Shown: piece by piece, positions 37,385 through 51,906 of the stretch
How positions within the stretch are numbered: position 1 is the first letter of the stretch
How the letters are laid out: each line of letters begins with the position of its first letter
Assembly (NCBI GenBank): GCA_964362125.1
Contig: CAYICS010000002.1
Coordinates: forward strand, 9,302 to 73,301
Direction: 5' to 3'
Source: an uncultured Candidatus Saccharibacteria bacterium
Lineage (GTDB): Bacteria; Patescibacteriota; Minisyncoccia; UBA6257; UBA11618
DNA: 64,000 nucleotides
Position numbers and translations under genes: made by a program
The notes under the pieces: generated by a model
Seen by the model: the letters and a program-made list of their open reading frames with translations, nothing else
Told to the model about the DNA's origin: nothing
The model's database searches: none

Positions 37385-38350
37385 ATGAAGATTTTATATC
37401 TTTCTCATCCAACGCCGTTTAATTTTGATCTGATAGCCGGCTTAAAAAAACTGGGAGTAGAGATTTTTTATTTTAATGATGAATCAGGTTGGTTTATAAA
37501 TTCATTAAGGAGTCGTTTTTCTTTTGTCAGGCAGCTTAATAAAAAATTGCTGAACAAAAGATTAATCAAGACCTGCCGCCAATGGCAGCCCGATGTTTTC
37601 TTTACCACCAAAGGGATTACTATTAACCCGGAAACTCTGGCTCAAATCAAATCTTTAGGAATTAAGACCGTCAACTGGAATCTGGAGAATATTTATCACA
37701 AAGACTATTATCAGTGGTTTTTAAAAACAGCTGCTGCTTATAATCTGTTTATCAAGATGGATTCTTCCCGGGCAGATTCGATCAAGACCGGTTATCTGGC
37801 AGTGGCCATTAAACCAGAAAGATACCAGACACCGGATTTAACCGAGGATGAAAAAAGAAAATATCAATGTGATATTTTTTTCGCCGGCAGTTTTGATAAA
37901 GACCGGGAAGAATTGCTGTTATCAATAAAAGATTACGATTTGAAAGTTTTTGGTGATAAAAAATGGCAGGAGTCGCCATTAAAAGATTTTTATCACGGCG
38001 GCCCCCTGCCGTTAGAAGAATTTATTAAGGCCTGCTCCTGCGCTAAAATTTGTATCAATATTCAGCTTAAACCTGATACCTGCCGCGGGCTTAATCTTCG
38101 CGATTTTGAAGTGCCGGCCACCAGTAGTTTTTTACTCTCCCATTATCGGCCGGATATGGAAGAATTATTTGTTATTGGTAAAGAAATTGAAGTTTTTCGA
38201 AATGAGCAGGAGTTAAAAGAAAAAATTAAATTTTATCTGACAAATGACGATTTAAGAAAAAAAATAGCCGCCGCCGGCCAAGAACGGGTTTTGCGGAATC
38301 ACACTCTGGAGCGGCGGGCTAAGGAGCTTTTAACTTTGATAAATTCTTAA
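37385..38350 (+). CDS. CgeB-like / Glyco_trans_1_2 family protein
   Basis: 321 aa. The C-terminal LRKKIAAAGQERVLRNHTLERRAKEL block is typical of CgeB-family glycosyltransferase-like proteins. Confidence 0.4.
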   Translation: MKILYLSHPTPFNFDLIAGLKKLGVEIFYFNDESGWFINSLRSRFSFVRQLNKKLLNKRLIKTCRQWQPDVFFTTKGITINPETLAQIKSLGIKTVNWNLENIYHKDYYQWFLKTAAAYNLFIKMDSSRADSIKTGYLAVAIKPERYQTPDLTEDEKRKYQCDIFFAGSFDKDREELLLSIKDYDLKVFGDKKWQESPLKDFYHGGPLPLEEFIKACSCAKICINIQLKPDTCRGLNLRDFEVPATSSFLLSHYRPDMEELFVIGKEIEVFRNEQELKEKIKFYLTNDDLRKKIAAAGQERVLRNHTLERRAKELLTLINS

Positions 38351-39044
38351 AGCGGATTTCCGCCAATTGCCATTCTTCCGGGGTATTGATGTCAACTTCG
38401 TAAATAGGATTAGTGACATAAAGCTCAACTTTTTGGCCGTAGAGGCGGGAGGGTTTTTCGTAAAGATTTTTTGGTTTGAGAAGATAGATTATTTCATTGC
38501 GGGCATAGCATTTTTCCGGAAAGTCCTGTCGGCGGTTAATGATTTTTTTTAGAGGGATTCCGCCGAATAACGACACCTTTCCTTTTTTGTCTTGTGTAAG
38601 AGTCCAATAGGGCGTGTGATTAGCCGGGGTTTCGTTGACAGCCACCACCGAATCGCATCCTGTTTTCTTCATAATTTTAATGGCTTCATCAATATGCCAG
38701 CTTTGACGCAGGGGGTTGGTGCAGAAAAGCAGGGCTAGGGCGTCGGCAGAGTAGCTTTCTTTAGCTTTTAACCATTCGTAGACGTGTTTCATTACCGGCT
38801 CGATACCTATGGTAGCGGTGGCCAGCTCCGGAGGTCTTAAAAACGGCACTTCAGCGCCATAGCGCCGGGCAATTTTGGCAATTTCCGAACTATCAGTAGA
38901 AACAATCACCCGGTCCAGTTTTTTGCTTTTTAGGGCGGATAAAATTGTCCAAGCGATTAGGGGCCTGCCGCAGAAAATCTTGGTGTTCTTTTTTTTCGTT
39001 CGCTCGGAATTCCCCCGAGCTGGAATAACGCCAACTATTTTCAT
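38319..39044 (-). CDS. Acylneuraminate (nonulosonate) cytidylyltransferase, i.e. CMP-NulO synthetase (NeuA/PseF/LegF family)
   Basis: IPARGNSERTKKKNTKIFCGRPLIAWTI gives the CTP_transf_3 signature. The gene is 241 aa. Confidence 0.75.
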   Translation of the reverse strand: MKIVGVIPARGNSERTKKKNTKIFCGRPLIAWTILSALKSKKLDRVIVSTDSSEIAKIARRYGAEVPFLRPPELATATIGIEPVMKHVYEWLKAKESYSADALALLFCTNPLRQSWHIDEAIKIMKKTGCDSVVAVNETPANHTPYWTLTQDKKGKVSLFGGIPLKKIINRRQDFPEKCYARNEIIYLLKPKNLYEKPSRLYGQKVELYVTNPIYEVDINTPEEWQLAEIRFKNLSKLKAP

Positions 39045-39316
39045 TGTTTTTTAGACTTAATTTTCACTAGTGTCACTGTATAAATAGTGACAGCAACAAG
39101 AAAAATACTTTGACCAATAATCAAATAAATATCCTGAACTAATAACATTTTTATCCATAAAATAAAAGTAGCTGCCAATCGGATGATTACTTCCCGCAAA
39201 ACGATATCTTTGGCGGATTTTGTGATGTAGATATGCCACCACTGGGCTAATACACCATAACTTAAAAAGGCCAAAGTGCCCACAGAGAGATAATCAAACA
39301 CTTTCAAGAAATCCAT
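39041..39316 (-). CDS. Small membrane protein with a lipid-A-disaccharide-synthase N-terminal-like (LAB_N) domain
   Basis: 91 aa with 3 TM helices. The QWWHIYITKSAKDI...IIGQSIFLVAV pattern resembles LAB_N. Confidence 0.45.
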   Translation of the reverse strand: MDFLKVFDYLSVGTLAFLSYGVLAQWWHIYITKSAKDIVLREVIIRLAATFILWIKMLLVQDIYLIIGQSIFLVAVTIYTVTLVKIKSKKQ

Positions 39317-39371
39317 TTAATTTGATTAAATATTAACAGAGTTTTTAGCTATTGTCAAAAAAAAATCGACC

Positions 39372-39500
39372 CTACCTTGTGGGCAGGGTCGTGGGGTCAA
39401 TGCCCCGGGCTTCGAGGACCAGGTTGGCAAAGTCGCGCAGGGCGCCGTTGCCGCCGGGTCGGGGTGTCACCCAATGTGCCATTCGTTTGACCACTTCCTC
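39372..39500 (-). pseudogene. Remnant of the C-terminal ~40 codons of a KdsC-family phosphatase
   Basis: The minus strand translates to EEVVKRMAHWVTPRPGGNGALRDFANLVLEARGIDPTTLPTR*, bounded by an in-frame TAA upstream. This is homologous to the C-terminus (SGGNGAFRDFANFILTAWGINPLTLPPQ*) of the 45974-46633 gene. Nucleotide similarity extends into that gene's terminator hairpin. Confidence 0.5.
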
Positions 39501-39636
39501 TTAGTCCGCTGGGAATTACCCTTGGCCGGGATGACGCCGATTACCTTCATTTCAAAAATTATATAACCTTTTTTTTGATAAAGCAATAAATCTAGACAGA
39601 ATTACGATAGTTTGTTAAAGTTATTAGATATTATAA

Positions 39637-40749
39637 ATGATAGAAAATTTTGAGAAATTAAAGAAAATTAAATTACTGGCCCTTGATTTTGATGGAGTGT
39701 TAACGCCGGCCAAGGTTATTGTTAGCGCCAACGGTGAAGAATCGGTGGTCTGTAGTCATCGCGACGGACAGGGCATAGAGTCAATTCGTAAGGCAGGGGT
39801 GCCGGTGGTTGTTATATCCGGTCAGCGCAGTCTATATGTTGAGAAGCGCTGTAATAAAATGGGCATAGATTTTTTTCAAAATATAAAAGACAAGCCAGCT
39901 TGTTTATTGGCATATCTAAAAGAAAAACATCCGTCCGTTGCCATTGAAGATGTTTGTTTTGTTGGCGATGACGCCAGCGACTTGGCTGTTATGAATATTG
40001 TCGGGGCGCCCATAGCAGTCGCTGATGGGACAGAAGAAGTAAAACAGCGGGCTTTGTTGGTTACTAATCGTAATGGCGGAGAAGGAGCGGTGCGGGAGGT
40101 GTGCGATATTATTATTAAGGCCAAAAGCAGTGATATTGATAATCACGCCTTTCTTAAAATTCTTATTACCGGCACCGGCGAAAGAGCAACAGAGGAAGTG
40201 CGGATGATAGCAAAAAATATTGCCGCTGTCTTTGGAAGAAATGGTGATATTATTTTAACTAACGGCGGCCCCAATGGGGTTCCAGAGGCGGCGGCGACCG
40301 GAGCTAATGAGGCCGGCGGCCATTCAGTCGCCTACACTTTTATGCCCGGCCGAACGACCGAATACACAAAAACCAAAGAAATTAAATCTTTCCCGGATTA
40401 TGAACAACGCAATGCCTATCTTTGTTCAGATTCGGATGTAGCTATTTTTTTCCAGGGGGGCTTGGGCACCGCCACTAAATTTTTTACACTCCTCCATCGT
40501 CTGGTCCATATTAATGGCGAATTGATGAAAAAGGGCTTCCCCTCGCTCCAAAGGCCCAAACTAATGATCGTTCATTCCAGTTTTGCTCCCAATGATTTAA
40601 TAAAATGCCAGGAGTTATTTGGACGCAATTTTAAACCAGAACACTTTGCGGCTGTACATTTCGCCGATACGGCGGAGGAAATTATTAAGATAGTTGATGG
40701 CTGGCGGGGAAAAGACAAAACCTTGACACCGGAGGATTTTTTATTATAG
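39637..40749 (+). CDS. Fusion of a KdsC-family HAD phosphatase (N-terminal) and a LOG/TIGR00730-like Rossmann domain (C-terminal)
   Basis: The N-terminal ~165 aa read LALDFDGVLT, RDGQG and VGDDASDL. The C-terminal ~200 aa read TNGGPNGVPEAAATGANEAGGHSVA and FFQGGLGTATKF, which resemble the LOG GGGxGT(L)EE motif. Confidence 0.6.
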   Translation: MIENFEKLKKIKLLALDFDGVLTPAKVIVSANGEESVVCSHRDGQGIESIRKAGVPVVVISGQRSLYVEKRCNKMGIDFFQNIKDKPACLLAYLKEKHPSVAIEDVCFVGDDASDLAVMNIVGAPIAVADGTEEVKQRALLVTNRNGGEGAVREVCDIIIKAKSSDIDNHAFLKILITGTGERATEEVRMIAKNIAAVFGRNGDIILTNGGPNGVPEAAATGANEAGGHSVAYTFMPGRTTEYTKTKEIKSFPDYEQRNAYLCSDSDVAIFFQGGLGTATKFFTLLHRLVHINGELMKKGFPSLQRPKLMIVHSSFAPNDLIKCQELFGRNFKPEHFAAVHFADTAEEIIKIVDGWRGKDKTLTPEDFLL

Positions 40750-40821
40750 TATCCCGGCTATTGCCGAAGATGTTCTTCGGCGCACTTTGACAAACACAAT
40801 TGATAAAAATAGGAAATTTCT

Positions 40822-41823
40822 ATGGATGTAATCGCAGTATCTCTTTCCCTGACGGGTGTTTTGTTCATTGCCAGTCACAATATCGTTAAACGAATATCTC
40901 TTCGTGACGGTCAGTTAACTCCCAGCGAGTTTCTGGCTGTATCTCAAGGAATTGCTGTTCTTTTCCTGGCGGCGATGATTTTATGGGAAGGATTTGACGC
41001 GCCATCCCATTTTAATTCAAGAATTTTCTGGATGGCGGTTTTTATCACCGCCGTCATTAACATCTTGATTCAGTATGCCAATGCTCGGGCGGCCCAACTT
41101 GCCGAGGCCTCGCTGATTGCTCCCATTCAGGCGCTCACTCCGGGATTAGTTACCATCACTGCTTTGACTTTAGGAGAGCAACCTACCCTACAGGGAATTG
41201 CCGGAATTGGTTTGATCGCCTTGGGTACTTATATCCATGGCCGCGAGAACGCCACTACTCTGCGGGAGTATCTTTATCCTTTTGCCTTTCTCAGGCTTCC
41301 GGCTAATTTCAAAGAGTTGCCATTAATAGCCCAGCGACAGGCATTAAGTAACCGGACCGCGCTTCGTTTCGCTTATGGTTCGGCAGTGGCCGGCTCTGTG
41401 GCTTTGGTTTTTGACGGTTTGTTAGCTCGTAATGGCAATGTAGCCTTAGGTATGATGGTTAAGTGGCTGATCTTAACTCTATTTTTCGGCTCGGCGGCGA
41501 TAGCGGGGTTATTCCGGAATGACGTCTATTCTCAAAAAAGAAAAATCTTCGGAAAATGGCGCTTGCTTCTTGGAGCGGGAATTTTTTTGGGTCTTAATGA
41601 GGTGTTGATAGGAACAGCTTTTCGGGTGGCGCCCATAGCCTACATCGGCAGTCTCAAACGTCTAAGCATCATCTTTATTACTCTTCTCTCTTGGTGGATT
41701 TTAAGAGAGGCAAAGGCCAAGCGTCGCCTTTTCCCGGCTTTATTGGTAACAGGCGGCGCAATCCTCTTGGCAACAGACGGCAGTATGGCCCGCCTTGTGA
41801 ATTATCTTGATTTTGTGTTATAG
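40822..41823 (+). CDS. EamA/DMT-superfamily membrane transporter
   Basis: 333 aa, with about 10 TM helices arranged as two repeated halves. Confidence 0.5.
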   Translation: MDVIAVSLSLTGVLFIASHNIVKRISLRDGQLTPSEFLAVSQGIAVLFLAAMILWEGFDAPSHFNSRIFWMAVFITAVINILIQYANARAAQLAEASLIAPIQALTPGLVTITALTLGEQPTLQGIAGIGLIALGTYIHGRENATTLREYLYPFAFLRLPANFKELPLIAQRQALSNRTALRFAYGSAVAGSVALVFDGLLARNGNVALGMMVKWLILTLFFGSAAIAGLFRNDVYSQKRKIFGKWRLLLGAGIFLGLNEVLIGTAFRVAPIAYIGSLKRLSIIFITLLSWWILREAKAKRRLFPALLVTGGAILLATDGSMARLVNYLDFVL

Positions 41824-41875
41824 TAAGCCCAGCAGCTCTTCTTAATCTAAAACTCTCAGGAAAGGAGCAGTTTCT

Positions 41876-42325
41876 ATGTCTCAACAGACAGTGCGCCGTC
41901 AGTGTCAGGTGGTGGATAAAGAGAAAATACAAAGTATGTGCGATTGGCCCAACCAGACAGGGTGTTTGGTGGTAGAACCATCACAGGAGTTGTACAAACT
42001 TGGTTTCCCGGTAAGGGTGGTTCATGATTGTGATGCTATCCTTCCCATGGCCGAAGCGCATCCTCATCAAGATGATCTCTGGCTTTGTGTTTCTGGCAGG
42101 GCTTTATTTTGTATCGGCGGCAAGCTCGACGGCGAACGAAAAATGGGTGATGATGGCAAAACAGTGCTGGCCCCGGGTATTGTTGGCGGCCGAGACATTG
42201 TTTTGGAGCCCGGCCATTGGCTGCACATCCCGGCTGGGCAGCCCCATCGGCATGGCGCTCAAGGATTGGCCTGTCTTCTCATCATCAAGATTCCGCCGCC
42301 AGAGGGAGAAGTCTCTATTGAATAA
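41876..42325 (+). CDS. Cupin-domain protein
   Basis: Carries GHWLHIPAGQPHRH, a cupin motif. Confidence 0.5.
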   Translation: MSQQTVRRQCQVVDKEKIQSMCDWPNQTGCLVVEPSQELYKLGFPVRVVHDCDAILPMAEAHPHQDDLWLCVSGRALFCIGGKLDGERKMGDDGKTVLAPGIVGGRDIVLEPGHWLHIPAGQPHRHGAQGLACLLIIKIPPPEGEVSIE

Positions 42326-42385
42326 CTTGGGTGTAGAATCCAAACGGAGGCGTATCAGCCGCTGATACGCCTTCTTTATTAAAAT

Positions 42386-43186
42386 ATGAAAACATTGGAG
42401 AAATACTTAAAAAGAAAAAAAATAATTATTAGAAATCGGTTAATTACTGTGAATTATTTTTATCGTCCTGGCAGCGCAGGATTAATTATTTTTATCCCCG
42501 GATTAGGATGCTTAAAAGAAGAATACAGTGGGGCATTCCAATCAGGATTATTGAAGCGATTCGCTTTATTGGTTTTTGATTGGCCGCAGGAACAGCTTAA
42601 TCTAAGAGATATTGCTTATATTACTCATCAAATTGCCGGGGGTTATGCCAAGAAATATATAATTGTTAGTCATAGCGCCGGAGGCGCCGCGGGATTACTT
42701 TGTATTAAAGAAAAACCGCAAAATGTGGTTGGCTTCGTAAATATTGAAGGCAGTTTAATTGCCGATAATGCCAGATGGTCCCGTAAAATAGTGAAGATGG
42801 GGATTAAATCGCTTCGTGAAAAAAACTTCGGTTCGCTGGTGCGATCTTTACAAACTTCAAAAAACCCCGGTTTCCGGAATTACGGCAAAGAGCTCGCAGG
42901 TATTTCAATAAAATCTTATTTTAGTTACAGCCGTTCTCATGCTCGTTATGTTCAGGGAGAGCGATTGCTTAATCAATATATTAAACTTAATATACCTAAA
43001 ATTTTTATCTATGGCATTCAAAATAAAAGCTGGAAAAATACAATTAAGAAACTTAAAGAGGGGAAATGCGCCGTTGCCAATATTCCCAAAAGTCATCACT
43101 TTCCGCACATAGATAATCCCCGATATTTTTATAATTTTATATATAAGTTTGCCCGGAAAATTTTTATTTCTTCCACTGGTGTTTAA
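42386..43186 (+). CDS. Alpha/beta-hydrolase-fold protein
   Basis: Carries a VSHSAGGAAG nucleophile-elbow-like motif. The gene is 266 aa. Confidence 0.45.
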   Translation: MKTLEKYLKRKKIIIRNRLITVNYFYRPGSAGLIIFIPGLGCLKEEYSGAFQSGLLKRFALLVFDWPQEQLNLRDIAYITHQIAGGYAKKYIIVSHSAGGAAGLLCIKEKPQNVVGFVNIEGSLIADNARWSRKIVKMGIKSLREKNFGSLVRSLQTSKNPGFRNYGKELAGISIKSYFSYSRSHARYVQGERLLNQYIKLNIPKIFIYGIQNKSWKNTIKKLKEGKCAVANIPKSHHFPHIDNPRYFYNFIYKFARKIFISSTGV

Positions 43187-43212
43187 CGTTAAGATGCTGT
43201 TGGGATTTTACT

Positions 43213-43250
43213 AAACTAACTCGACGATCGTCAAGTTAGTTTAGTGGATA
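43213..43250. promoter_or_regulatory. 17-bp inverted repeat (actaaactaactcgacg / cgtcaagttagtttagt), an operator-like or terminator hairpin
   Basis: Near-perfect palindrome with 1 mismatch, centred on gatcg. It lies downstream of the hydrolase gene and upstream of a TTGACT...TATATC promoter-like region. Confidence 0.35.
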
Positions 43251-43382
43251 AAAAATTCATCAAATCACAAAGTTACAATATTGACTTTTATCACTTTTTA
43301 AAATATTATCGTTATATCGTTATCAAGATTAGCTATGGGCTAGTCCTTGATGTTCTTTGGTAAACTTTTAGGAGAACCAGTA

Positions 43383-44477
43383 ATGTCCATGAATGCCGGC
43401 GAGAAACAGCATGCTCACGACCCACAGGGGACACTTTTTGAAGGTCTGTTTCCAGTAATGTATGCAATGGAGGGCTTGGTTAAAGGCGGCTATCTGCGTC
43501 AATCGAGGTACACTGCTTTACTGGCAGATACCCACAGCGGCGGCTTGATAGGGAAAAACGTTCTTGACCTTGGCTGTGGATATGGCACAACCACTTTTGC
43601 AGCGGCCGGGTTTTATCCGGCGTCGATTACTGCCACAGACCGTTCTCAAGCAATGATTGAGATGATGCGGCTGGTATTGTTAAGCTCCGGAAGTATCGAG
43701 GACTGGTTATTAGCGCTTGGCGCTGATCAGCTATTAAAAGAGAAACTAAGTGATTTAACCAAATTCTTGGGACAGATGCGTCAGTGTTTCCATTTAAGCA
43801 GTTTTTGGAAACATCATCATCCGCTCGAGATACTCAATTATGGACTCTTTGAGTTCCCCACCCCAACAGATCTTTTTGATGTGGTAGTAGCTAATAATGT
43901 TCTGCATTGGCCCATCAATCAACTTAAGGCCGATTTAGAGAAAACCGGTCAGCAGACAACAGTTGATCGTTGTACTGCCGAGGTCTTGAATCAAGCGCGG
44001 CGTTTGATAAAACCAAAGGGTATTTTGGTGATAATGGAACCCAAGGCCCTGACTGTCTTTGATACTCACCCGCTTCTGGAAGCGAGTTTTTCGGAGTTGA
44101 ACGACGGTAATCACCCGGTTTTTATCAAACTCAATAACTTAATCAACCAGATTCTCCAGCGAGATTATAACATTACCCGGAATACACCTAGAAATCCGGA
44201 TATGTTTAGAGTTAGTCAGATGGATGGATTAGCTGTTGACGCCGGATTTAGGTTGATTAAGACGACGGCAGTGGAAGAACTCACAATGATGCCGGCGATT
44301 GAATTTTTCCCTATCAATGTGCCGATCAACTTAGGCGCCATCAACCTACCTCTTCTGGAAAAAATGAAAGTAGTCCAAGAGGCAACGGTTGGGCTGGAAC
44401 CCCTACTGTCGGAAGAAGAAAGGACGATGCCGATGCGGGGGCAATCGTTTTATTTTACTTTCCAGGCAGTTGATTAA
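43383..44477 (+). CDS. Class I SAM-dependent methyltransferase. The ORF track starts it at 43347; the RBS supports 43383.
   Basis: AGGAG lies 7 nt before ATG 43383. Motif I reads VLDLGCGYGTTT, and NNVLHW follows. Confidence 0.6.
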   Translation: MSMNAGEKQHAHDPQGTLFEGLFPVMYAMEGLVKGGYLRQSRYTALLADTHSGGLIGKNVLDLGCGYGTTTFAAAGFYPASITATDRSQAMIEMMRLVLLSSGSIEDWLLALGADQLLKEKLSDLTKFLGQMRQCFHLSSFWKHHHPLEILNYGLFEFPTPTDLFDVVVANNVLHWPINQLKADLEKTGQQTTVDRCTAEVLNQARRLIKPKGILVIMEPKALTVFDTHPLLEASFSELNDGNHPVFIKLNNLINQILQRDYNITRNTPRNPDMFRVSQMDGLAVDAGFRLIKTTAVEELTMMPAIEFFPINVPINLGAINLPLLEKMKVVQEATVGLEPLLSEEERTMPMRGQSFYFTFQAVD

Positions 44478-44506
44478 AACGGCTGGCTTTAAAACCAGTC
44501 CTCAGA

Positions 44507-44536
44507 AACCCGCTTCGAAGGAGGCGGGGTTTTTTA
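44507..44536 (+). terminator. Rho-independent terminator
   Basis: aacccgc-ttcgaaggag-gcggggtt followed by tttttat. Confidence 0.6.
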
Positions 44537-44580
44537 TAATAGACAAAAATCAGATAAGCGTGCTAATCTAATGATTAATA

Positions 44581-45084
44581 ATGATTTCAAAAAAATTAAG
44601 CTTAAAATTAAAGAAAATTAAATTACTAGCCCTTGATTTTGACGGCGTTTTTACCGATGGCAAGGTTTATCTTAATCAAGACGGCATTGAGACTGTGGTT
44701 TGCAGTCGTCGTGACAGTTTGGGCTTGAATCGATTAAAGAAATTAGGCATTAAATTGGCGGTGATCTCCATGGAGCCCAATCCGATTGTGGCTAAAAGAT
44801 GTGAAAAACTTAAAATTGAAATGCTTTATAGTCCTGAAGGAAAAGGCGAGTTGCTTAAGCAATTGGTAAATAGAGAAAAGCTTTCACCTAACGAAGTTGG
44901 TTATATGGGAGACGATCTTAATGATCTTGATTGTTTAAAGTACGCGGGGGCGGCTTTCACTGTGGCTGATGGAGCTTTTCCTTGCTTAAAAACAGCTGAT
45001 TATGTTACCAAAAGAAAATCAGGAGATCATGCCCTTCGTGAAGTATGCGATCTGATTTTAAGAGCTTATGGACAAGAAACATAA
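44581..45084 (+). CDS. KdsC-family (HAD-IIIA) sugar-acid phosphate phosphatase
   Basis: Carries LALDFDGVFTDG, RRDSLG and MGDDLNDL. The first ~45 nt of the coding sequence are near-identical to the 5' end of the 39637 gene. Confidence 0.75.
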   Translation: MISKKLSLKLKKIKLLALDFDGVFTDGKVYLNQDGIETVVCSRRDSLGLNRLKKLGIKLAVISMEPNPIVAKRCEKLKIEMLYSPEGKGELLKQLVNREKLSPNEVGYMGDDLNDLDCLKYAGAAFTVADGAFPCLKTADYVTKRKSGDHALREVCDLILRAYGQET

Positions 45085-45892
45085 AATTGGAAGAAAAACC
45101 GCCTTATTAACCGGAGCATCTGGTTTTTTCGGCAGACAATTCACTGAGGCCTTATTAAACACCGGATTAAAAGTGATCGCTATTGATCAAAATAAAAATG
45201 GACTGGAGTCGATGAGAAAAGAATTAAACGGGAGATTTGGTCATAAACTTTTCACTTATCAAGTTGATCTTTATAATCGTAATCAAACCAAAGAATTATA
45301 CAGAAAAATTATCAAAGAGCATAAAAAGATTGATATTTTAGTCAATAACGCTTTTGATTTTAGCAGTAAAACCGGTTTTAACACGCCAGAAGGCAAGATT
45401 GAAAAAGCCACCCACGATCAATTTTTAGCTTGTTTTGAAGCTGGTGTTTATTGGGCTTTTGAAACCACTCAAGTTTTTGGTTTAGCTATGAAAGGCAATG
45501 GCGGCGGCTTAATTGTCAATATCGGAACAATGTACGCCCAATTTGTGCCTAACCCGTCTCTTTATGAAGGAACGCCGCAATTTAATCCATGGGGTTACAG
45601 CGCCAGCAAGGGAGCTTTATTGCAGTTCACCCGCTATGCGGCGGCTTGGTTGGCTCCGGAAGTACGGGTAAATATGATTTCCCCCGGCGTTTTTCCTCAT
45701 CCGCCGAAAGGAACCAAGAATCCGCCCAGTTCGGCGGTGTTAGATCGCCTGCAAAAAAAAATTCTTTTGCGGCGGGTGGGCAAACCGGAAGATTTAGTCG
45801 GGGCGCTGTTGTTTCTGATTTCTGATGCTTCCAGTTATATCACTGGCCAAAATTTTTGTATTGACGGCGGGATTACCGTGACTGTGACTTAA
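45068..45892 (+). CDS. Short-chain dehydrogenase/reductase, paralogue 1
   Basis: Carries TGASGFFG, NNAF, YSASKGAL and DGGITVTV. Confidence 0.75.
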   Translation: MDKKHKIGRKTALLTGASGFFGRQFTEALLNTGLKVIAIDQNKNGLESMRKELNGRFGHKLFTYQVDLYNRNQTKELYRKIIKEHKKIDILVNNAFDFSSKTGFNTPEGKIEKATHDQFLACFEAGVYWAFETTQVFGLAMKGNGGGLIVNIGTMYAQFVPNPSLYEGTPQFNPWGYSASKGALLQFTRYAAAWLAPEVRVNMISPGVFPHPPKGTKNPPSSAVLDRLQKKILLRRVGKPEDLVGALLFLISDASSYITGQNFCIDGGITVTVT

Positions 45893-45973
45893 CCGAGACT
45901 TAAATAAAATCAACCCCACCTTATGAGATGGGGTTGTGGTTGTGATGGGTTTCATAGTCCCTGCAAACCAGCC

Positions 45974-46633
45974 CTATTGAGGCGGCAGGGTTAAGGGATT
46001 AATCCCCCAGGCTGTCAGGATGAAATTGGCAAAATCGCGGAAGGCGCCGTTGCCGCCGGAACGTTGCGAGACAAAGTCAACGATGCTTCTGATGGCAATA
46101 TCGGCGTTGGCTGGGGCGGCTCTTAAAAGCACCTTTCGTAGAATTTCCACATCTACTAAATCGTCGCCCATATAGGCGCAATCACTAAAAGTCAGGCCAA
46201 CTTCTTTAAGCCACTCCTCGGCTTTGGCAACTTTGCCGCCGCCGTAACTGCCTTCGTAAAGCCGGACAAGCTCCCAGCCGCCATCACCCGGGGCCTTGGA
46301 AGTAGAAGATAATTTGTTCCACTTCTCAACCACATCCCTGATATGCCGGCTGGCCTCGTTTTTTTCAGAGGTGATCAGGCAAACACGGACACCGATGGCT
46401 CGGAGTAAAGAGACGCCTTGGCCATCGTAGTAACTGCGCCTTTTGGATGGACTAAGTGGATCAACGGTATTATCAGTAAAGACCCCATCCACGTCCGAGA
46501 TGACAGCCCGAATGATTCCGGCTTTATTCCAGACCGCCTCAGAAGATTCGCCTGTCACCATATCTATGAAATGGTCTCTCGGTATGATCATTTTATTCTC
46601 CTTATTCTCCTCTTCAACAGTTTCGTTTGTCAA
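45974..46633 (-). CDS. KdsC-family phosphatase with an N-terminal extension
   Basis: Carries VISDVDGVFTD, YDGQG, MGDDLVD and GGNGAFRDF. Confidence 0.7.
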   Translation of the reverse strand: MTNETVEEENKENKMIIPRDHFIDMVTGESSEAVWNKAGIIRAVISDVDGVFTDNTVDPLSPSKRRSYYDGQGVSLLRAIGVRVCLITSEKNEASRHIRDVVEKWNKLSSTSKAPGDGGWELVRLYEGSYGGGKVAKAEEWLKEVGLTFSDCAYMGDDLVDVEILRKVLLRAAPANADIAIRSIVDFVSQRSGGNGAFRDFANFILTAWGINPLTLPPQ

Positions 46634-46717
46634 AGTGCGCCGAAGAACATCTTCGGCAATAGCCGGGATATTATCATAAAAAATCCCCCGGTGTCAAGGA
46701 CACCGAGGGGGGGTTGG

Positions 46718-48472
46718 TTAGCCGGTCAGATCAAGAATCTCGAGAGTCCGGCCGCTGTCAACCAGTTCCCGAGCCCGCAGGAAAACATCCATTGGCATGT
46801 CGCTGTAGTTGAGCGGGTCACCGGTCTTGGGATTATGCAAGAGTTTGGTGGCGTCGTCTAACTCCAGAACATACTGCTCGAAATTCTCATCGCAGATCGG
46901 CTGGTCGAACTGATCAAACTGGATGCCAAACACTTCCCAAAGCATCTGGCGAACCTTGGGATGGTTGCCCATGCTTGTTCCCGGATACCAGGTGGCAGTG
47001 AACATCCGTTTGTTGACTGTCTCCGGCCCCTTACCGCATTGGGCATAGAACTGCTCTTGCCAGCGCATAAAGGCCACACTCTGCTTGAGGTTAGCCAAGG
47101 TCTCGGTGGGGTAGGCCATGATCCAGGTGCAGTTGGCATGGATTCCGGCATACTCACAGTTCTCTGTGCCCTCCACCATACTGCGGGGGAACTCCATTTC
47201 CCGGCCATCAACTTTGACAGTTACCATCCCGTTACTCAGGATAAAACCGCCTTTGTGCATGGCCTCCAGGACTGGCGGTGAAGCGCTCTCGGCTCCAAAG
47301 CCGATGTAGACACAGCCAGCTTTAGCCATTGAATCAATGCGCTTGGGATCTTCCACTAGCCCTGTTTTGGGATGGCGGCCGGCGGCCTCATCCATCCGGG
47401 TATGAGTCCCCCAACGCATCTTCAGGGGCGCCAGCCACGGCTCTATATCCTGAACAATCCGTTTCTGGGTAACGGCGAAGTTGTCATCAGGCATGCCGAT
47501 GAAATCCACCCCATACTTATCGATATGGGACAGGAAAATCCTCGCCAATCTTTTACCAGAAAACACACCATAAGTACGTTCGCCTTGCGCTCCCCTAAAG
47601 CAGAAATCGCAGGCATGGGGACAACCGCGGCTGGAAACAAAAGTAGTACTGCGGCTCATGGCGAAGGAAGTGGCCGAGCTGTTATTGGCAGAAACTCCCC
47701 AGTTGGCATTGCCGATGTAACACTCCAACAGTCGGTTGCCGTTGACATCTTCCCGCAGTAGTTCCAGATCGGCAATGGCTAGACTATCCAGATCTTTGGG
47801 TCGGCCGCCATCATAAAGAAAGCGGTGCCGGCCATTGATGAAGCCGCGGTAGTAGGGTTGGACTTCGCCCCAATTGACAGCGCTTGTCCGGCCTCGATCT
47901 CTAATTGCCTTGGCATCATAGGCAATTTTGAGAATCACCTCGTCGCCTTCAGAATGAGCCACGCCATCCAGTTCAGGAATGTAGTTGAACAAACCTAAGC
48001 GCAGTTCAGTAGCCAAGCCATTGCCGCTGACCAGAAACACATCCGGCAAAAGCCGCCGGATGAGCTTGGCTACTGCTTTCTGCCACGGGAGAGTGGTGAT
48101 GATGCCGGAAAAGGCGACTAGATTCGGTTCGCCGTGAAAAAGAATGTGTTTTTTAATCAACTCCTCGGCTTCAGCCAGTGTCAGATGCCGGCCATTAGGC
48201 AGGCCGCGCTCCTGAGCCAGCTGGTCTTTGATCCGGTAGGCATTAAGGTCAATAATACTGGCCTCAACGCCGTAGTTGTCCCGGAGATTGGTGGCCAGCA
48301 TCAATGGCCCTTCCGGCGTGGTGTTGGGCACCGCGCTCTCCCGTAAAGGCATATTGATGAAAACCACCCGCAGACCAGCCAAATCTCTGTGGCTGATAGA
48401 ACTAACCACCGGGCCCGGGTCAACATACTGTCCCAGCTCCAAGCTGGTTACCGGCAACAGAACTGTGCTCAT
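46718..48472 (-). CDS. B12-binding-domain radical SAM protein (class-B-like)
   Basis: A CPHACDFC (Cx3Cx2C) cluster lies after an N-terminal Rossmann/B12-binding-like domain (VVFINMP...LVAFSG). The gene is 584 aa and relatively GC-rich. Confidence 0.6.
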   Translation of the reverse strand: MSTVLLPVTSLELGQYVDPGPVVSSISHRDLAGLRVVFINMPLRESAVPNTTPEGPLMLATNLRDNYGVEASIIDLNAYRIKDQLAQERGLPNGRHLTLAEAEELIKKHILFHGEPNLVAFSGIITTLPWQKAVAKLIRRLLPDVFLVSGNGLATELRLGLFNYIPELDGVAHSEGDEVILKIAYDAKAIRDRGRTSAVNWGEVQPYYRGFINGRHRFLYDGGRPKDLDSLAIADLELLREDVNGNRLLECYIGNANWGVSANNSSATSFAMSRSTTFVSSRGCPHACDFCFRGAQGERTYGVFSGKRLARIFLSHIDKYGVDFIGMPDDNFAVTQKRIVQDIEPWLAPLKMRWGTHTRMDEAAGRHPKTGLVEDPKRIDSMAKAGCVYIGFGAESASPPVLEAMHKGGFILSNGMVTVKVDGREMEFPRSMVEGTENCEYAGIHANCTWIMAYPTETLANLKQSVAFMRWQEQFYAQCGKGPETVNKRMFTATWYPGTSMGNHPKVRQMLWEVFGIQFDQFDQPICDENFEQYVLELDDATKLLHNPKTGDPLNYSDMPMDVFLRARELVDSGRTLEILDLTG

Positions 48473-48617
48473 CTTGCTATCCTCCAGTTTTGATTGATTA
48501 GATTGTAAAGGTGCTTTCTATTAATAATATACCACTTGCTAAAAAAATTGCTATATGCTAGTTTAGATAGTCTTTTGGCACCTCGGCAACCTGATAACCG
48601 AAAGAAGGGATAGAACG

Positions 48618-49448
48618 ATGACTGGATTGTTTTCTTTGACAGGCAAACTGGCAGTGCTGACTGGGGCGGCTGGCTTCTTTGGCCGGCCTTTTACCAAAGC
48701 CCTGCTTGAGGCCGACGCCACTGTCTTACTGCTTGACCGAAAAAGCGGCCAGCTCAACCAGTTGATTGAAGAACTGGTTCCGGGCTACGGCCGGGCACGA
48801 GCTATTTCTTATGCAGCTGATCTTTATCAGCCCCAAGAACGTGATCAGGTCTTTAAGCGGGTTTTGGAGGAGTGGGGCCCTCCTGACATTCTCATCAATA
48901 ACGCTTTTGACTTCACTGGCAGGACCGGTTTCAACATTGAAGCCGGCCGGCCGGAAAATACCACCTATGAACAACTGGAGGCCTGCTTCCAGTCAGCTTT
49001 CTACTGGGCCTTCTTCGCTACCCAAGCTCTGGGACCGAAGATGAAAGAACGCGGCCGCGGCTCGATCATCAACATCGGCACGATGTATGCTGACAGCGTC
49101 CCTAACATCAACAAGCTATATGCCGGCACCAATCAGTTCAATCCGCCCGGCTATAGCGCTGGCAAGGGCGCCTTACTGCAATTCACCAAGTACAGCGCTG
49201 CTTGGTTGGCGCCAAAGGTCCGAGTGAATATGATCTCTCCCGGCGCCTTTCCCCATCCGCCTGAAGGAACGCCCAACCCCGCCACTGAACTGGTATTGAG
49301 TCGGCTGCAGCAGAAGATTCTGCTGGAGCGAATGGGTAAGCCGGAGGATCTGATCGGCACCCTGATCTTTCTCGCTTCTGACGTTTCCAGCTACATCACC
49401 GGCGAGAACATTGGAGTCGATGGCGGCATCACAGTCACAGTCACGTAA
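48618..49448 (+). CDS. Short-chain dehydrogenase/reductase, paralogue 2
   Basis: About 60% identical to the 45068-45892 product, with the same TGAAGFFG, YSAGKGAL and DGGITVTVT blocks. Confidence 0.75.
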   Translation: MTGLFSLTGKLAVLTGAAGFFGRPFTKALLEADATVLLLDRKSGQLNQLIEELVPGYGRARAISYAADLYQPQERDQVFKRVLEEWGPPDILINNAFDFTGRTGFNIEAGRPENTTYEQLEACFQSAFYWAFFATQALGPKMKERGRGSIINIGTMYADSVPNINKLYAGTNQFNPPGYSAGKGALLQFTKYSAAWLAPKVRVNMISPGAFPHPPEGTPNPATELVLSRLQQKILLERMGKPEDLIGTLIFLASDVSSYITGENIGVDGGITVTVT

Positions 49449-49482
49449 TTAATCGGAGAAAAACGATCCACAATGGGGGCGG

Positions 49483-50541
49483 TTGACACCGCTCCTTTTT
49501 TTGTTCATATTAAAAGCTATTATGCCGCGGCGCTTTTTCCCCCAAAAATTTTTATCCCGCTTGGTCAGGTTTATTAAGAATCAGCCGCCTCTTGCCACAA
49601 AGGATGTTTTTATTGGCGGCCTGCCTGTTGGCCGGGGCCGCCCCTGCTTTTTTGCGGCAGAAATCGGGATTAACCACAATGGCAGTTTGGAAATTGCCAA
49701 GAAGCTTATTGATGCCGCCGCCTTTGCCGGCGCCCAAGCTGTTAAATTTCAAAAACGGACCGTTGCTAAAGTTTACTCTCCTGAAGAACTGGCCAAGCCG
49801 CGGGTTGTGGATAGGGCGGTTTTGGAAAATGCCGTTAAGCGCGGCGTCCTTTCCCGGGAAGCGGTTGAGCGGCTTCAACGCTCTGACTTTAAAGACAGCA
49901 CCAATGGCGATCTAAAATGGGCTTTGGAATTCACTGAATCTGAATATCGGGAATTATTTGCTTACGCTAAAGAGAGGGGCCTGCTTTGTTTTGCTTCGCC
50001 GTGGGATTTAGACAGTATTGATTTTTTGGAAAAACTTAATCCGCCCTGCCATAAGGTTGCTTCAGCTATGATTACTAATCATTCTCTTTTACGGAAAATC
50101 AGGACTACTGGCCGGCCCATCGTTCTTTCCACTGGTATGAGCACAATGGATGAAATAAAAGCGGCTATTAATATCGCTGGTCTGGATAATCTGATTATTC
50201 TTCATACTGTTTCCACTTATCCTTCAAAAGAAGAAGAGCTTAATTTGCAGTTAATTACCCATTTGCGCGGGCTTTTCCCAACTGTGCCTATTGGCTACAG
50301 CGGCCATGAAAAAACTCTTGCGCCATCATTAATGGCAGTCAGCTTAGGGGCGCACTTGATTGAACGTCATTTGACACTGGACAAAACAATGTTCGGCACT
50401 GATCAGTCGGCTAGCTTGGAGCCGCAGGAATTTGCCCAACTTATTCACGATGTGCGGCTGATAGAACAGGCGGCCGGCGGCCGGGTGAAGCAAGTGATGT
50501 CTTCAGAGGTGCCGATTAGAGAAAAACTACGGAAAGTTTAA
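49483..50541 (+). CDS. NeuB/PseI/LegI-family nonulosonate (or nonulosonate-9-phosphate) synthase
   Basis: Carries PCFFAAEIGINHNGSLEIAKKLIDAAAFAGAQAVKFQKR, the NeuB signature. The C-terminus looks short for a full SAF domain. The start could be 49483 or the ATG at 49522. Confidence 0.7.
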   Translation: MTPLLFLFILKAIMPRRFFPQKFLSRLVRFIKNQPPLATKDVFIGGLPVGRGRPCFFAAEIGINHNGSLEIAKKLIDAAAFAGAQAVKFQKRTVAKVYSPEELAKPRVVDRAVLENAVKRGVLSREAVERLQRSDFKDSTNGDLKWALEFTESEYRELFAYAKERGLLCFASPWDLDSIDFLEKLNPPCHKVASAMITNHSLLRKIRTTGRPIVLSTGMSTMDEIKAAINIAGLDNLIILHTVSTYPSKEEELNLQLITHLRGLFPTVPIGYSGHEKTLAPSLMAVSLGAHLIERHLTLDKTMFGTDQSASLEPQEFAQLIHDVRLIEQAAGGRVKQVMSSEVPIREKLRKV

Positions 50542-50703
50542 GAAGAATCTGTTAGTTAAAAATATTAACAACTTATGGTGCGGTCGTTATAAATTTGTTA
50601 ATATTTTCAACAAGTTTATTGGCAGTACCGCGCGGCAATAAAAGCTTGCCAAGATCTCGGGTTTATTATAATATATAGCCGGTTCTCAATAATCCAATAT
50701 AGA

Positions 50704-50743
50704 AATTTGTGTTGACGGCGGGATCACAGTCACTGTTACCTGA
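50704..50743 (+). pseudogene. Remnant of the 3' end of an SDR paralogue
   Basis: aatttgtgttgacggcgggatcacagtcactgttacctga encodes ..CVDGGITVTVT*, which matches the 3' ends of the genes at 45068 and 48618. No upstream homology remains. Confidence 0.4.
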
Positions 50744-50757
50744 AATGGAGGTGGATA

Positions 50758-51906
50758 GTGTCCAGCAAGCTGTTCGTGTTTGTGGTGGGAGATATCGGCG
50801 GCGCCAAAATGATACTGCCGGTGATTCCCCTGTTCAAGAAAGCAGGAGTGGATGTGGAGGTGATGGCCGACAGTGAAGGCGAGGGCTATAAAGTTCTCAA
50901 TGAGGCCGGCGTCAAGACTTACAACATCACTGAAGCTGATGTTGGCGGGACAAGAGGGGTGCCGTTGGAAGAGGCGAATCTTCTTTTCATCGGCACCTGC
51001 GGCACAGCCAATAAGTTAGAGAGAGGAGCAGCTGCTCAGTATTTCAGTCAGAAGCCAATAGTGTTAGGGGCTGATGGCTTCTTCAATCACAACCGGTTGG
51101 ATTGGCGCGAGGCCAAAGCTGATTACTGGTTTGCCATTACTGAAGAACACACCATTGATATCCGGAGGCGCCGGCCCAATCTGGCGCCGGATAAAGTACT
51201 GGTCGTCGGCAATCCGGCTTTTGATAATTTGCCGACGCTCTACAAGCGCAAAGGCGAGGTGCGACAGCAAAGACGGCAGGAACTGGGGCTGACTGATAAC
51301 CAAATCCTGGCTATCTGGTGGTCGCAAGGCACAGAGTGCGTCTTGAGAGAAGATGTCGCCTATACCTTTGAATCAATTCAATGTCTCTCTTGTCTTGGCC
51401 GACCAGTGATGTTTGCGGCAATGGTTCATCCCAAAGTGGAGAGAATTAGGGCTGGCTACATCGCCGAGATCTATAAGCAAATAGAGACGACGGCGATTCA
51501 GTGCCGCGTTGATGTTCTTCCAGAGAGCGCCGTTAAAGGCAAAATGCCTTTTGAGGAGTTTTGTCTGGCGGCTGATGTCATCTTTGACATCACCAGCACT
51601 GAGGGCATCAAAAGCAATATTCTTGGCGGCCCGCCGCTGATTCACTTCGCTGGCGTTGAAACCAGACGCTGGTTTGAGCAAGATCTGGGATTGGAACCGC
51701 CAGACTATCTGCCAGACGTGCGCACTGGCCAATCGTTTACTGCCAATGATTTTATACAGCTGGCTGAAACGATTAGAGCGGCCGTTAGAGGTAATTCTCC
51801 TCTGCCTCGGGAAGAATATCTAAAACAATGCAGTTGGCAGCCGCCAACCATCCACAATGCCGCCGAAAGAATCGCCGAGGCGCTGTTGGAGATAGGCGGT
51901 GTGTAA
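50758..51906 (+). CDS. UDP-GlcNAc 2-epimerase-like (NeuC/WecB-fold) protein with a GTG start
   Basis: N-terminus LFVFVVGDIGGAKMILPVI resembles the Epimerase_2 N-terminus, and VVGNPAFDNL follows. A GGAGGTGG RBS lies upstream. The gene is GC-richer than its neighbours. Confidence 0.4.
   Translation: MSSKLFVFVVGDIGGAKMILPVIPLFKKAGVDVEVMADSEGEGYKVLNEAGVKTYNITEADVGGTRGVPLEEANLLFIGTCGTANKLERGAAAQYFSQKPIVLGADGFFNHNRLDWREAKADYWFAITEEHTIDIRRRRPNLAPDKVLVVGNPAFDNLPTLYKRKGEVRQQRRQELGLTDNQILAIWWSQGTECVLREDVAYTFESIQCLSCLGRPVMFAAMVHPKVERIRAGYIAEIYKQIETTAIQCRVDVLPESAVKGKMPFEEFCLAADVIFDITSTEGIKSNILGGPPLIHFAGVETRRWFEQDLGLEPPDYLPDVRTGQSFTANDFIQLAETIRAAVRGNSPLPREEYLKQCSWQPPTIHNAAERIAEALLEIGGV

Follow-up and report, generated by a model that had tools for sequence, protein, structure and literature searches.

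Sialic-acid-like sugars usually come up in connection with animals and pathogens, and their synthesis through a phosphorylated intermediate has been treated as a peculiarity of animals, Bacteroides and algae. In Bacteroides thetaiotaomicron, the pathway for 2-keto-3-deoxynononic acid (Kdn), as far as PMC6200933 relates it from Wang et al. 2008, consists of the synthase BT1714, the phosphatase BT1713 and a cytidine monophosphate (CMP)-Kdn synthetase, and no dedicated phosphatase was found in the alga Prymnesium parvum (PMC6200933). The α2β2 loop of human NANS is reported to favour the use of N-acetylmannosamine 6-phosphate (ManNAc-6-P), and the C-terminal SAF domain gives Arg314 to the substrate site of the NeuB enzymes that act on free sugars (PMC8208679). 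A large-scale phylogeny in the same study contains whole branches of SAF-less NeuB homologues in environmental bacteria, including Streptomyces and cyanobacteria; it gives these branches no substrate or pathway and makes no mention of phosphatase linkage, Patescibacteria or an insertion (PMC8208679). Here we describe such a SAF-less synthase, together with KdsC-family phosphatases and a NeuA/PseF-like cytidylyltransferase, in a 64,000-nucleotide stretch of DNA (the window) from an uncultured Candidatus Saccharibacteria bacterium (contig CAYICS010000002.1, positions 9,302 to 73,301). With a probability that we put at roughly 60%, the region represents the Patescibacteria (candidate phyla radiation, CPR) version of the phosphorylated-intermediate nonulosonic-acid pathway, set within a glycan locus of ~40 kb, whereby a surface glycan would receive a CMP-activated, probably methylated, nonulosonic-type acid by way of a 9-phosphate intermediate.

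The central enzyme is a phosphoenolpyruvate (PEP)-condensing synthase of the NeuB family ('NeuBx', 339 aa, 49522..50541 on the forward strand), which matches PF03102 with 239.4 bits (cutoff 22.1). Its open reading frame (ORF) extends over 49483-50541, and the ATG at 49522, chosen by gene callers, is the likely start of the 339-aa product (P0001). No profile match to the SAF domain was found in this protein, whose match to the equivalog model stops at model position 278 of 329. Its AlphaFold model (predicted local distance difference test score, pLDDT, 92.5) is a triosephosphate isomerase (TIM) barrel of the NeuB type, and the nearest folds are those of Neisseria meningitidis NeuB, the SAF-less Leptospira protein 6ncs and PseI (E 1e-24 to 1e-19; 27-30% identity to NeuB), followed by 3-deoxy-arabino-heptulosonate 7-phosphate synthase (DAHPS; E 1e-12) and 3-deoxy-manno-octulosonate (Kdo) 8-phosphate synthase (KDO8PS; E ~1e-8 at ~10% identity). 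A placement among Kdo-8-phosphate synthases, which an initial annotation of the window had named as the outcome to watch for, is thus not seen. The same annotation proposed a check of metal-binding and substrate residues, and the metal and PEP ligands prove to be conserved: K75/Q77, K178/S181, S260/H262, E281/H283 and D294, identified through the residue numbering of N. meningitidis NeuB, are invariant in an 18-sequence alignment and also line up with the reference sequences. The synthase is roughly equidistant from all references, with pairwise identities of 41% to NANS (218 bits, the best of the references), 37% and 34% to proteins named neuB and pseI by the Prokaryotic Genome Annotation Pipeline (PGAP), 32% to BT1714 and 30% to the P. 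parvum Kdn-9-phosphate (Kdn-9-P) synthetase.

Three 9-phosphate synthases whose dependence on sugar 6-phosphates has been characterised experimentally served as references throughout. The human NANS sequence is an exact match to SIAS_HUMAN, and that of the P. parvum Kdn-9-P synthetase comes from the supplement of PMC6200933. BT1714 was recovered from gut-metagenome contigs by means of the published BT1713 sequence and reading of the adjacent gene, and the gene next to BT1713 in the source record is labelled "sialic acid synthase [B. thetaiotaomicron]". In one of these contigs (L096, ~4290), BT1714 is broken into two ORFs by the loss of a single base, and the gene is intact in two others (L095 and L098). 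The comparators were 11 SAF-bearing NeuB/PseI sequences.

Relatives of the window synthase form a clade with members in at least 597 stretches (pattern scan, one genome per species) from Saccharibacteria, Parcubacteria, Melainabacteria, Chloroflexota, Acidobacteriota, Nitrospiraceae, Chlorobi, Planctomycetota, Actinomycetota and a cultured Acidocella; members are also present in cultured Methylomagnum, Hymenobacter and Nonomuraea. The loci compared below are the best 80 of these synthase-bearing stretches plus added loci, so that counts run over 84, 85 or 88 loci; a neighbour is a gene within 10 kb of the synthase, and motifs were counted in two sets, 84 clade members and the 18-sequence alignment. 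The clade is monophyletic in 197 of 200 neighbour-joining (NJ) bootstraps, and a split between the 11 comparators and the clade plus the three references appears in 119 of 200 (unrooted tree, Kimura distances). Two motifs follow this split. The signature G[ST]D[HQ], derived in this analysis and not an established diagnostic, occurs in 84/84 and 18/18 clade members and in each of the three references; it is missing from all 11 comparators, which have GPD at the place where the window synthase reads 'FGTDQ'; it is also found in 63 of 71 NeuB-family ORFs that adjoin BT1713-like phosphatases. The α2β2-loop motif [FWY]G.T[YN]G is present in 58 of 84 clade members, again in 3/3 references and 0/11 comparators.

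Gene neighbourhoods point in the same direction. Of 85 loci drawn from many phyla, 68 have a KdsC-family gene near the synthase (with a stricter threshold, 67 of 84), 36 have a CTP_transf_3 gene there and 34 a short-chain dehydrogenase/reductase (SDR) gene. The KdsC proteins that adjoin clade synthases have Glu at the position aligned with Glu56 of BT1713. In Chloroflexia and Nitrospiraceae, the synthase is abutted by fusions of CTP_transf_3 with KdsC (L065, 8654-9955; L028, 10857-12059), and Melainabacteria present a minimal synthase-KdsC pair. The clade-wide synteny with KdsC, the CTP_transf_3-KdsC fusions and the two motifs held in common with 9-phosphate synthases together argue for a phosphorylated route.

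Several of these loci have features of their own. The Chloroflexia loci with the CTP_transf_3-KdsC fusions also encode a triple-domain fusion of NeuB, SAF and AP_endonuc_2 (L065, 16305-18188). Around the Melainabacteria pair lie a FliO-like gene, then genes for a tetratricopeptide repeat (TPR) protein, an aspartokinase and a PRK-family kinase, a context that adds little beyond the pair itself. In Acidobacteriota, Chloroflexota, Peptococcaceae and others (among them L035, L055, L057, L058 and L081), the synthase-KdsC pair is followed by a recurrent set comprising a thiamine pyrophosphate (TPP) enzyme of ~606 aa, an AP_endonuc_2 (xylose-isomerase-like) protein, a GFO_IDH_MocA oxidoreductase and SDRs, the same families as IolD, IolE/IolI and IolG of inositol catabolism. 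On the Methylomagnum ishizawai plasmid pRS11DPr1 (L089, 4901-13572), the synthase occurs with a HAD-IIIA phosphatase, a split transketolase, a class III aminotransferase and an SDR, and with LplT, a GNAT N-acyltransferase and a lysophospholipid acyltransferase, a gene content which suggests that a related ulosonic acid may be built into a lipid. The context of the Nonomuraea locus (L093) is unannotated and uninformative.

The window itself encodes three KdsC-family phosphatases. KdsC1 (39637..40749, forward strand, 370 aa) joins a type A phosphatase (residues 1-165; TIGR01670, 127.8 bits, cutoff 106.95; DFDGV and GDDxSD motifs) to a SLOG/LOG-like domain (residues 174-285; PF18306, 50.4 bits) of the LDcluster4, TIGR00725-like kind. 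This fusion is an exact 370-aa entry in the public protein collection, and no homologue of the SLOG domain was found in the 88 comparison loci. KdsC2 (44581..45084, forward strand, 167 aa) is a type B phosphatase (TIGR01670, 116.7 bits, cutoff 106.95) that is 31% identical to the Kdn-9-P phosphatase BT1713 and whose motif 'SMEP' places a Glu in line with Glu56. KdsC3 (45974..46633, reverse strand; 45974-46591 and 205 aa from the gene callers' start; GC 0.505) is a divergent type C phosphatase that scores 66.5 bits with TIGR01670, below the 106.95 cutoff, and retains the HAD motifs with DVDGV intact; it has an N-terminal extension and a 16-aa insertion, and its 'TSEK' aligns with 'TGEK' of BT1713. 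With the KDN-9-P phosphatase model NF058599 (cutoff 180), the three reach 80.0, 92.3 and 87.7 bits, respectively, all below the cutoff, and this model is the top-scoring one for KdsC3 only. The DxDG and GDDxxD motifs are kept in all three.

Such a number of phosphatases is indeed unusual, as the initial annotation had remarked: among 84 loci, 17 have no KdsC copy, 64 have one, two have two and a single locus has three. With mutual identities of 24-38% and three orthologue types that recur in related genomes, the phosphatases are, judged by their sequences, old and distinct orthologue types, not recent duplicates. Type A has Q-R at the position aligned with Glu56 of BT1713, and its SLOG fusion occurs only here among the loci compared. 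The three proteins probably act on different phosphorylated intermediates or have partly non-catalytic roles. A KdsC3-type orthologue in a related Patescibacterium (L004, 5925-6551) carries Asn in place of the nucleophile Asp ('SNVDGV') and is probably catalytically inactive, which hints at a non-catalytic role of type C in some genomes.

The third core enzyme is a NeuA/PseF-like CMP-ulosonate cytidylyltransferase (38319..39044, reverse strand, 241 aa; PF02348, 73.9 bits, cutoff 22.6). Its best NCBIfam model is PseF (TIGR03584, 146.6 bits, below the 205.7 cutoff), and the KdsB models give at most 56 bits. Among structures in the PDB, it matches CMP-N-acetylneuraminate (CMP-NeuAc) synthetases nearly end to end (105.7 bits, residues 3-233) and KdsB at the N terminus (29 bits, residues 5-77), so the grouping with KdsB that the initial annotation had marked for scrutiny is not observed. 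It is 33% identical to a PGAP-named pseF and 31% identical to the CMP-Kdn synthetase of P. parvum. All the ORFs reported initially are present at or near the positions given, the NeuA-, NeuB-, KdsC- and SDR-family ones with the domains assigned to them; the suggested profile-based subfamily assignment led to NeuB/PseF-type families, with synthase and cytidylyltransferase below the NeuB, PseI and PseF equivalog cutoffs. Taken together, the linkage, the signatures and the type of the cytidylyltransferase support a synthase-phosphatase-CMP-transferase logic for the clade and make it plausible for the window. The proposal that a CMP-activated nine-carbon acid decorates the glycan is accordingly supported as far as a nonulosonic-type CMP-acid is concerned, and not for the identity of the sugar as Kdn; Kdn, a Neu-type acid and a methylated derivative are all conceivable.

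Next to the cytidylyltransferase, and overlapping its start by 4 bases, lies a gene for a 91-aa hydrophobic protein (39041..39316, reverse strand), with an orthologue at the same position in L004 (65.7 bits) and no Pfam match even at E<=1. From its translation it is probably a membrane protein, possibly a small transporter or membrane anchor.

A number of observations weigh against the phosphorylated route. Phosphorylation of the synthase substrate is deduced from synteny and motifs; the grouping of the clade with 9-phosphate synthases has 60% NJ bootstrap support in a tree without an outgroup, the synthase is hardly nearer in identity to NANS (41%) than to PGAP-named neuB (37%), and the KdsC linkage was counted in loci of the SAF-less clade only. 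The core enzymes stay below the equivalog cutoffs for PseF, NeuB (TIGR03569, 236.5 against 399.65), PseI (TIGR03586, 206.9 against 340.25), KdsC PRK09484 and KDN-9-P phosphatase, and the KdsC subfamily cutoff is exceeded by KdsC1 and KdsC2 alone. The region shows no evident sugar kinase gene, and the P-loop kinases encoded beside the synthase in L004, L006 and L008 have no homologue in the window. Further points concern the Patescibacteria themselves. The window synthase and its close relatives carry a Patescibacteria-specific insertion of ~27 aa within the α2β2 loop, which the structure model folds with high confidence into a pair of helices (98-107 and 112-120); the insertion precedes the variant 'FKDSTNGD', in which the aromatic-Gly of the motif is replaced. 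In the insertion-bearing subclade of Patescibacteria and Saccharibacteria, a KdsC gene is nearby in ~7 of 16 loci, and a cytidylyltransferase in 9 of 10. Since the insertion falls inside the putative phosphate-binding loop and the KdsC linkage in this subclade is partial, substrate specificity may be altered there. Finally, a 2-epimerase-like protein encoded directly behind the synthase would fit the free-sugar NeuC route.

This protein (50758..51906, forward strand, 382 aa) has a GT-B fold and a remote likeness to uridine diphosphate N-acetylglucosamine (UDP-GlcNAc) 2-epimerases. It has no significant sequence match in Pfam, NCBIfam or the PDB, and its single Pfam match at E<=1 is Epimerase_2 (E 0.031, 13.6 bits against a gathering score of 30.6). 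The AlphaFold model (pLDDT 87.6) shows two Rossmann domains in a GT-B arrangement, and nearly all of its top 50 fold matches in the PDB are 2-epimerases (E 2e-12 to ~1e-9, TM ~0.6), with 14% identity to the best of these structures. The label NeuC/WecB-like that it received initially thus stands at the level of the predicted fold, and at the sequence level has the sub-threshold Epimerase_2 match to show. An hhalign comparison of the family with a single NeuC sequence gave a probability of 1.5% and is not used as support.

The foremost alternative, which we consider rather unlikely, is a free-sugar nonulosonic-acid pathway in which the 382-aa protein acts like NeuC or LegG and frees a 2-acetamido hexose from an NDP-sugar, the synthase condenses this hexose directly with PEP, and the KdsC paralogues serve unrelated steps, for example by dephosphorylating precursors of side-chain modifications. 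One point for it is the 382-aa protein, whose fold is closest to UDP-GlcNAc 2-epimerases and whose gene lies directly downstream of the synthase both here and in L008; PseF being the best model for the cytidylyltransferase, the lack of a nearby KdsC gene in more than half of the Patescibacteria-type loci and the disruption of the NANS-like loop motif by the insertion are likewise in its favour. Conversely, the synthase has no SAF domain, the source of Arg314 in free-sugar NeuB (PMC8208679), and the G[ST]D[HQ] of 9-phosphate enzymes replaces GPD. The 382-aa protein is rare, with 11 homologues among 5.8 billion clusters, and absent from most clade loci, and the three KdsC genes are interleaved with the pathway genes. 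Nor does the window contain any PseB/C/H/G or LegB/C/H/G equivalog for a pseudaminic (Pse) or legionaminic (Leg) acid route; a Pse/Leg precursor route was considered for the upstream genes and rejected, as these are a CDP-glucose 4,6-dehydratase::RfbH fusion, Gmd and Fcl-like genes and aminotransferase/formyltransferase genes.

Synthesis of an eight-carbon (Kdo-like) or other non-nonulosonic acid, from PEP and a pentose or other aldose phosphate with KdsC-type dephosphorylation and CMP activation, appears improbable. KdsC1 and KdsC2 do score higher with KdsC models than with the KDN-9-P phosphatase model, the synthase family is related to KDO8PS and DAHPS, the available evidence leaves the acceptor substrate of the synthase free, and a KpsC/KpsS-like Capsule_synth protein is adjacent in some relatives (L007). 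Against this stand a cytidylyltransferase that is NeuA/PseF-like over its full length and matches KdsB at its N terminus only, and a synthase whose matches to NeuB/PseI (E 1e-24) are much stronger than those to KDO8PS (1e-8). In addition, the Arg that E. coli KdsC has in line with Glu56 of BT1713 is absent from all three KdsC proteins, and lipopolysaccharide synthesis is not known from Patescibacteria.

Beside the core triad stands a set of accessory genes, which the initial inventory, right about the triad, had overlooked: a B12-binding-type radical S-adenosylmethionine (SAM) enzyme, the SLOG fusion, the methyltransferases and an EamA/cupin/hydrolase block are what makes the locus unusual. 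The radical SAM enzyme (46718..48472, reverse strand, 584 aa) belongs to a rare subfamily, with 45 of 1.84 billion representatives at E<=1e-30. It matches Radical_SAM with 36.8 bits (cutoff 29.5), shows CxxxCxxC in its translation, reaches 19.6 bits for the B12-binding domain, below the 32.1 cutoff, and has weak best matches to BchE, ApyD, KedN5, PhpK and TokK. Orthologues occur next to the synthase in seven Patescibacteria loci, in each of them transcribed away from the SDR-synthase operon; in several, the gene immediately precedes that of the cytidylyltransferase, with which it would be co-transcribed. The two classical SDRs, described initially as paralogues, are 57% identical: SDR1 (45068..45892, forward strand, 274 aa; adh_short_C2, 135 bits) overlaps KdsC2 by 17 bases, and SDR2 (48618..49448, forward strand, 276 aa; adh_short_C2, 124 bits) lies immediately upstream of the synthase and has generic sugar/polyol SDRs as its nearest PDB entries. 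PDB sequence searches with the SDRs, the cupin and the radical SAM enzyme gave generic or insignificant matches only. The class I SAM methyltransferase MeT330 (51942..52934, forward strand, 330 aa; Methyltransf_11, 52.5 bits), downstream of the synthase, has orthologues in nine loci, usually directly downstream of the synthase, and is co-conserved with the synthase in Patescibacteria. The set of radical SAM enzyme, SDR, synthase and MeT330 recurs in seven loci.

Between KdsC1 and KdsC2, all on the forward strand, follow genes for an EamA/DMT-family membrane transporter (40822..41823; PF00892, 49.9 bits; orthologue in L008), a small metal-type cupin (41876..42325; Cupin_2, 31.8 bits), an α/β-hydrolase (42386..43186; Abhydrolase_6, 27.2 bits; L008 orthologue 230 bits) and a class I SAM methyltransferase of 376 aa (43347..44477; Methyltransf_31/23/25; L008 orthologue 371 bits). 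The cupin, which has an orthologue in L008 (104 bits) and another in L006, where it immediately follows the synthase, is possibly a sugar(-phosphate) isomerase or epimerase. L008, another Patescibacteria genome, shares the whole accessory set, namely the radical SAM enzyme, three HADs, EamA, cupin, α/β-hydrolase, methyltransferase and the 2-epimerase-fold protein. At least six SAM-dependent methyltransferase genes lie in and around the region, an unusually high density (43347-44477, 51942-52934, 54236-55273 and 55278-56837, and on the reverse strand 56893-58146 and 34866-36050).

Fom3 acts on cytidylyl-hydroxyethylphosphonate (cytidylyl-HEP). By analogy, the B12-radical-SAM enzyme might C-methylate the nonulosonate, possibly on its CMP-ester, and together with the methyltransferases and SDRs yield a branched or chain-extended, multiply methylated ulosonic acid, a proposal that we regard as doubtful; such a sugar, if real, would be new to glycobiology. 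On this reading, the three conserved KdsC types and the loop insertion would stem from a pathway that is particular to groundwater Patescibacteria and passes through several phosphorylated intermediates. Our literature search found no paper that links radical SAM enzymes with nonulosonic acids.

Base composition and a gene relic speak of a composite history. Over 45974-51906, which holds KdsC3, the radical SAM enzyme, SDR2, the synthase and the 2-epimerase-fold protein, GC is 0.48-0.55, against 0.38-0.42 in the flanking genes and a window mean of 0.43 (the cupin gene, 41876-42325, has 0.52); this suggests that the GC-rich block was acquired horizontally beside the lower-GC KdsC2-SDR1 pair. The relic, in the intergenic interval 39381..39550 (reverse strand, GC 0.629), begins with 19 codons from the start of a CTP_transf_3 gene (74% identity with the intact copy, tblastn E 4e-8) and ends, out of frame, with the 44 terminal codons of a phosphatase of the KdsC3 type (50% identity, tblastn E 8e-14). 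It resembles a cytidylyltransferase-phosphatase module or fusion gene that has suffered an internal deletion, and its domain order, that of the CTP_transf_3-KdsC fusion proteins elsewhere, suggests that modules were exchanged and a second copy decayed. A mosaic of partly redundant or decaying modules forming no single coherent pathway, with some phosphatase and SDR 'paralogues' as leftovers and the GC-rich block inserted after horizontal acquisition beside a native KdsC2-SDR1 remnant, would accommodate the GC contrast, the 63%-GC relic, SDRs that are merely 57% identical and the usual gene order HAD-SDR-synthase in other loci, but it is the least credible explanation given that all ORFs are intact with their catalytic motifs kept, that the same arrangement was assembled from three independent samples and that L008 also keeps three HADs and the same accessory set.

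In the phosphorylated pathway that we favour, the synthase would condense PEP with a sugar 6-phosphate to an ulosonic acid 9-phosphate, a KdsC-family phosphatase, with KdsC3 or KdsC2 as the likeliest candidate, would strip the phosphate, and the NeuA/PseF-like enzyme at 38319-39044, firmly assigned by family and putatively by substrate, would produce the CMP-sugar. The two xenologous SDRs, the rare B12-radical-SAM enzyme and the SAM methyltransferases would tailor the sugar or its precursor, most likely through oxidoreduction and C- and/or O-methylation, and, more speculatively, the hexose(-phosphate) precursor may come from the cupin and the divergent protein with the 2-epimerase fold. The sugar would then be added by a TagF-like or GT4 transferase to a glycan exported by the Wzx flippase. 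The candidate transferase for the CMP-sugar is a TagF-like (Glyphos_transf-related) protein (27323..28786, forward strand; PF04464, E 1.6e-8), 39% identical to an L004 protein that abuts the cytidylyltransferase; its family neighbours the synthase or cytidylyltransferase in 14 loci. The Wzx-type polysaccharide flippase is encoded at 52911..54215 (reverse strand; Polysacc_synt, 76 bits), and no counterpart of the Wzy_C-TPR and Bac_transf proteins that relatives commonly have was found in the window.

These genes are part of one large glycan-biosynthesis block extending from ~15 kb to ~57 kb of the window, which also contains GT4 glycosyltransferases, a glucose-1-phosphate cytidylyltransferase, Gmd, an Fcl-like enzyme, DegT aminotransferases, a formyltransferase, C- and O-methyltransferases and a CDP-glucose 4,6-dehydratase fused to an RfbH-like enzyme. 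The latter is a 747-aa ORF (24026-26269, forward strand) that combines the dehydratase (403 bits, above cutoff) with an RfbH-like pyridoxal phosphate (PLP) enzyme (339 bits), downstream of a glucose-1-phosphate cytidylyltransferase-like gene at 21859, and its domain content makes it look like a fused 3,6-dideoxyhexose pathway in a Patescibacterium. All ten gene products of the region that were looked up in the public protein collection are exact entries there. Three assemblies from 0.1-µm-filtered Hainich groundwater contain proteins identical to the synthase, whose named relatives are Patescibacteria/Parcubacteria.

The recurrence of a KdsC-tied, SAF-less synthase clade in at least 597 stretches (one genome per species) and many phyla suggests that the phosphorylated route is more widely spread than its known occurrences, and that it reaches the ultra-small Patescibacteria, for which our literature search found no paper on nonulosonic acids. 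The surface chemistry of these organisms probably mediates attachment to host cells and is little characterised. With its radical SAM enzyme, extra phosphatases and modified substrate loop, the Patescibacteria version is a concrete candidate for the source of a new modified nonulosonic acid.

Among known systems, the Bacteroides Kdn locus resembles the window in that a NeuB-family synthase stands beside a cytidylyltransferase and a C0 HAD phosphatase of the KdsC family, and a TagF-like gene lies close by. The clade has the loop motif and G[ST]D[HQ] in common with BT1714, and KdsC2 and KdsC3 are 29-31% identical to BT1713, with a Glu aligned with Glu56. By contrast, BT1714 (346 aa) has a SAF domain, lies outside the window clade and is 32% identical to the window synthase, the gene upstream of it encodes an unrelated type of cytidylyltransferase, and the 10.5-kb contig stretch contains one phosphatase and no radical SAM enzyme or SDR pair. 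The Bacteroides-type Kdn logic invoked in the initial annotation therefore survives as a synthase-phosphatase-CMP-transferase triad; the synthase is no orthologue of BT1714, and nothing points to Kdn in particular.

The animal route (GNE, NANS, NANP and CMAS) follows a comparable logic, with a 2-epimerase-like protein, a synthase, a phosphatase and a CMP-synthetase, and human NANS is both the best pairwise match of the window synthase (41%, 218 bits) and a bearer of the α2β2-loop and G[ST]D[HQ] signatures. The CTP_transf_3-KdsC fusions of clade relatives have the same domain order as vertebrate CMAS. NANS, however, keeps its SAF domain, the animal route has no radical SAM or methyltransferase tailoring, and no homologue of a ManNAc kinase was found in the window. 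The NeuB, PseI and LegI enzymes that act on free sugars belong to the same Pfam family and share the TIM-barrel fold and the metal and PEP ligands, whereas the window synthase is without SAF, has G[ST]D for GPD and a different α2β2 loop, and its clade has S, M or L at the position that aligns, with the 'KIGSGE' motif as a guide, with Glu134 (E134) of N. meningitidis NeuB (NmNeuB). Similar in build is the P. parvum Kdn-9-P synthetase, which is likewise SAF-less (312 aa), carries the same motifs and is specific for mannose 6-phosphate (Man-6-P) (PMC6200933); the CMP-Kdn synthetase of that alga is 31% identical to the window cytidylyltransferase, although its synthetase is 30% identical to the window synthase and has no 27-aa insertion. 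The taxa covered by the clade described here are comparable to those of the SAF-less branches in the large-scale phylogeny (PMC8208679).

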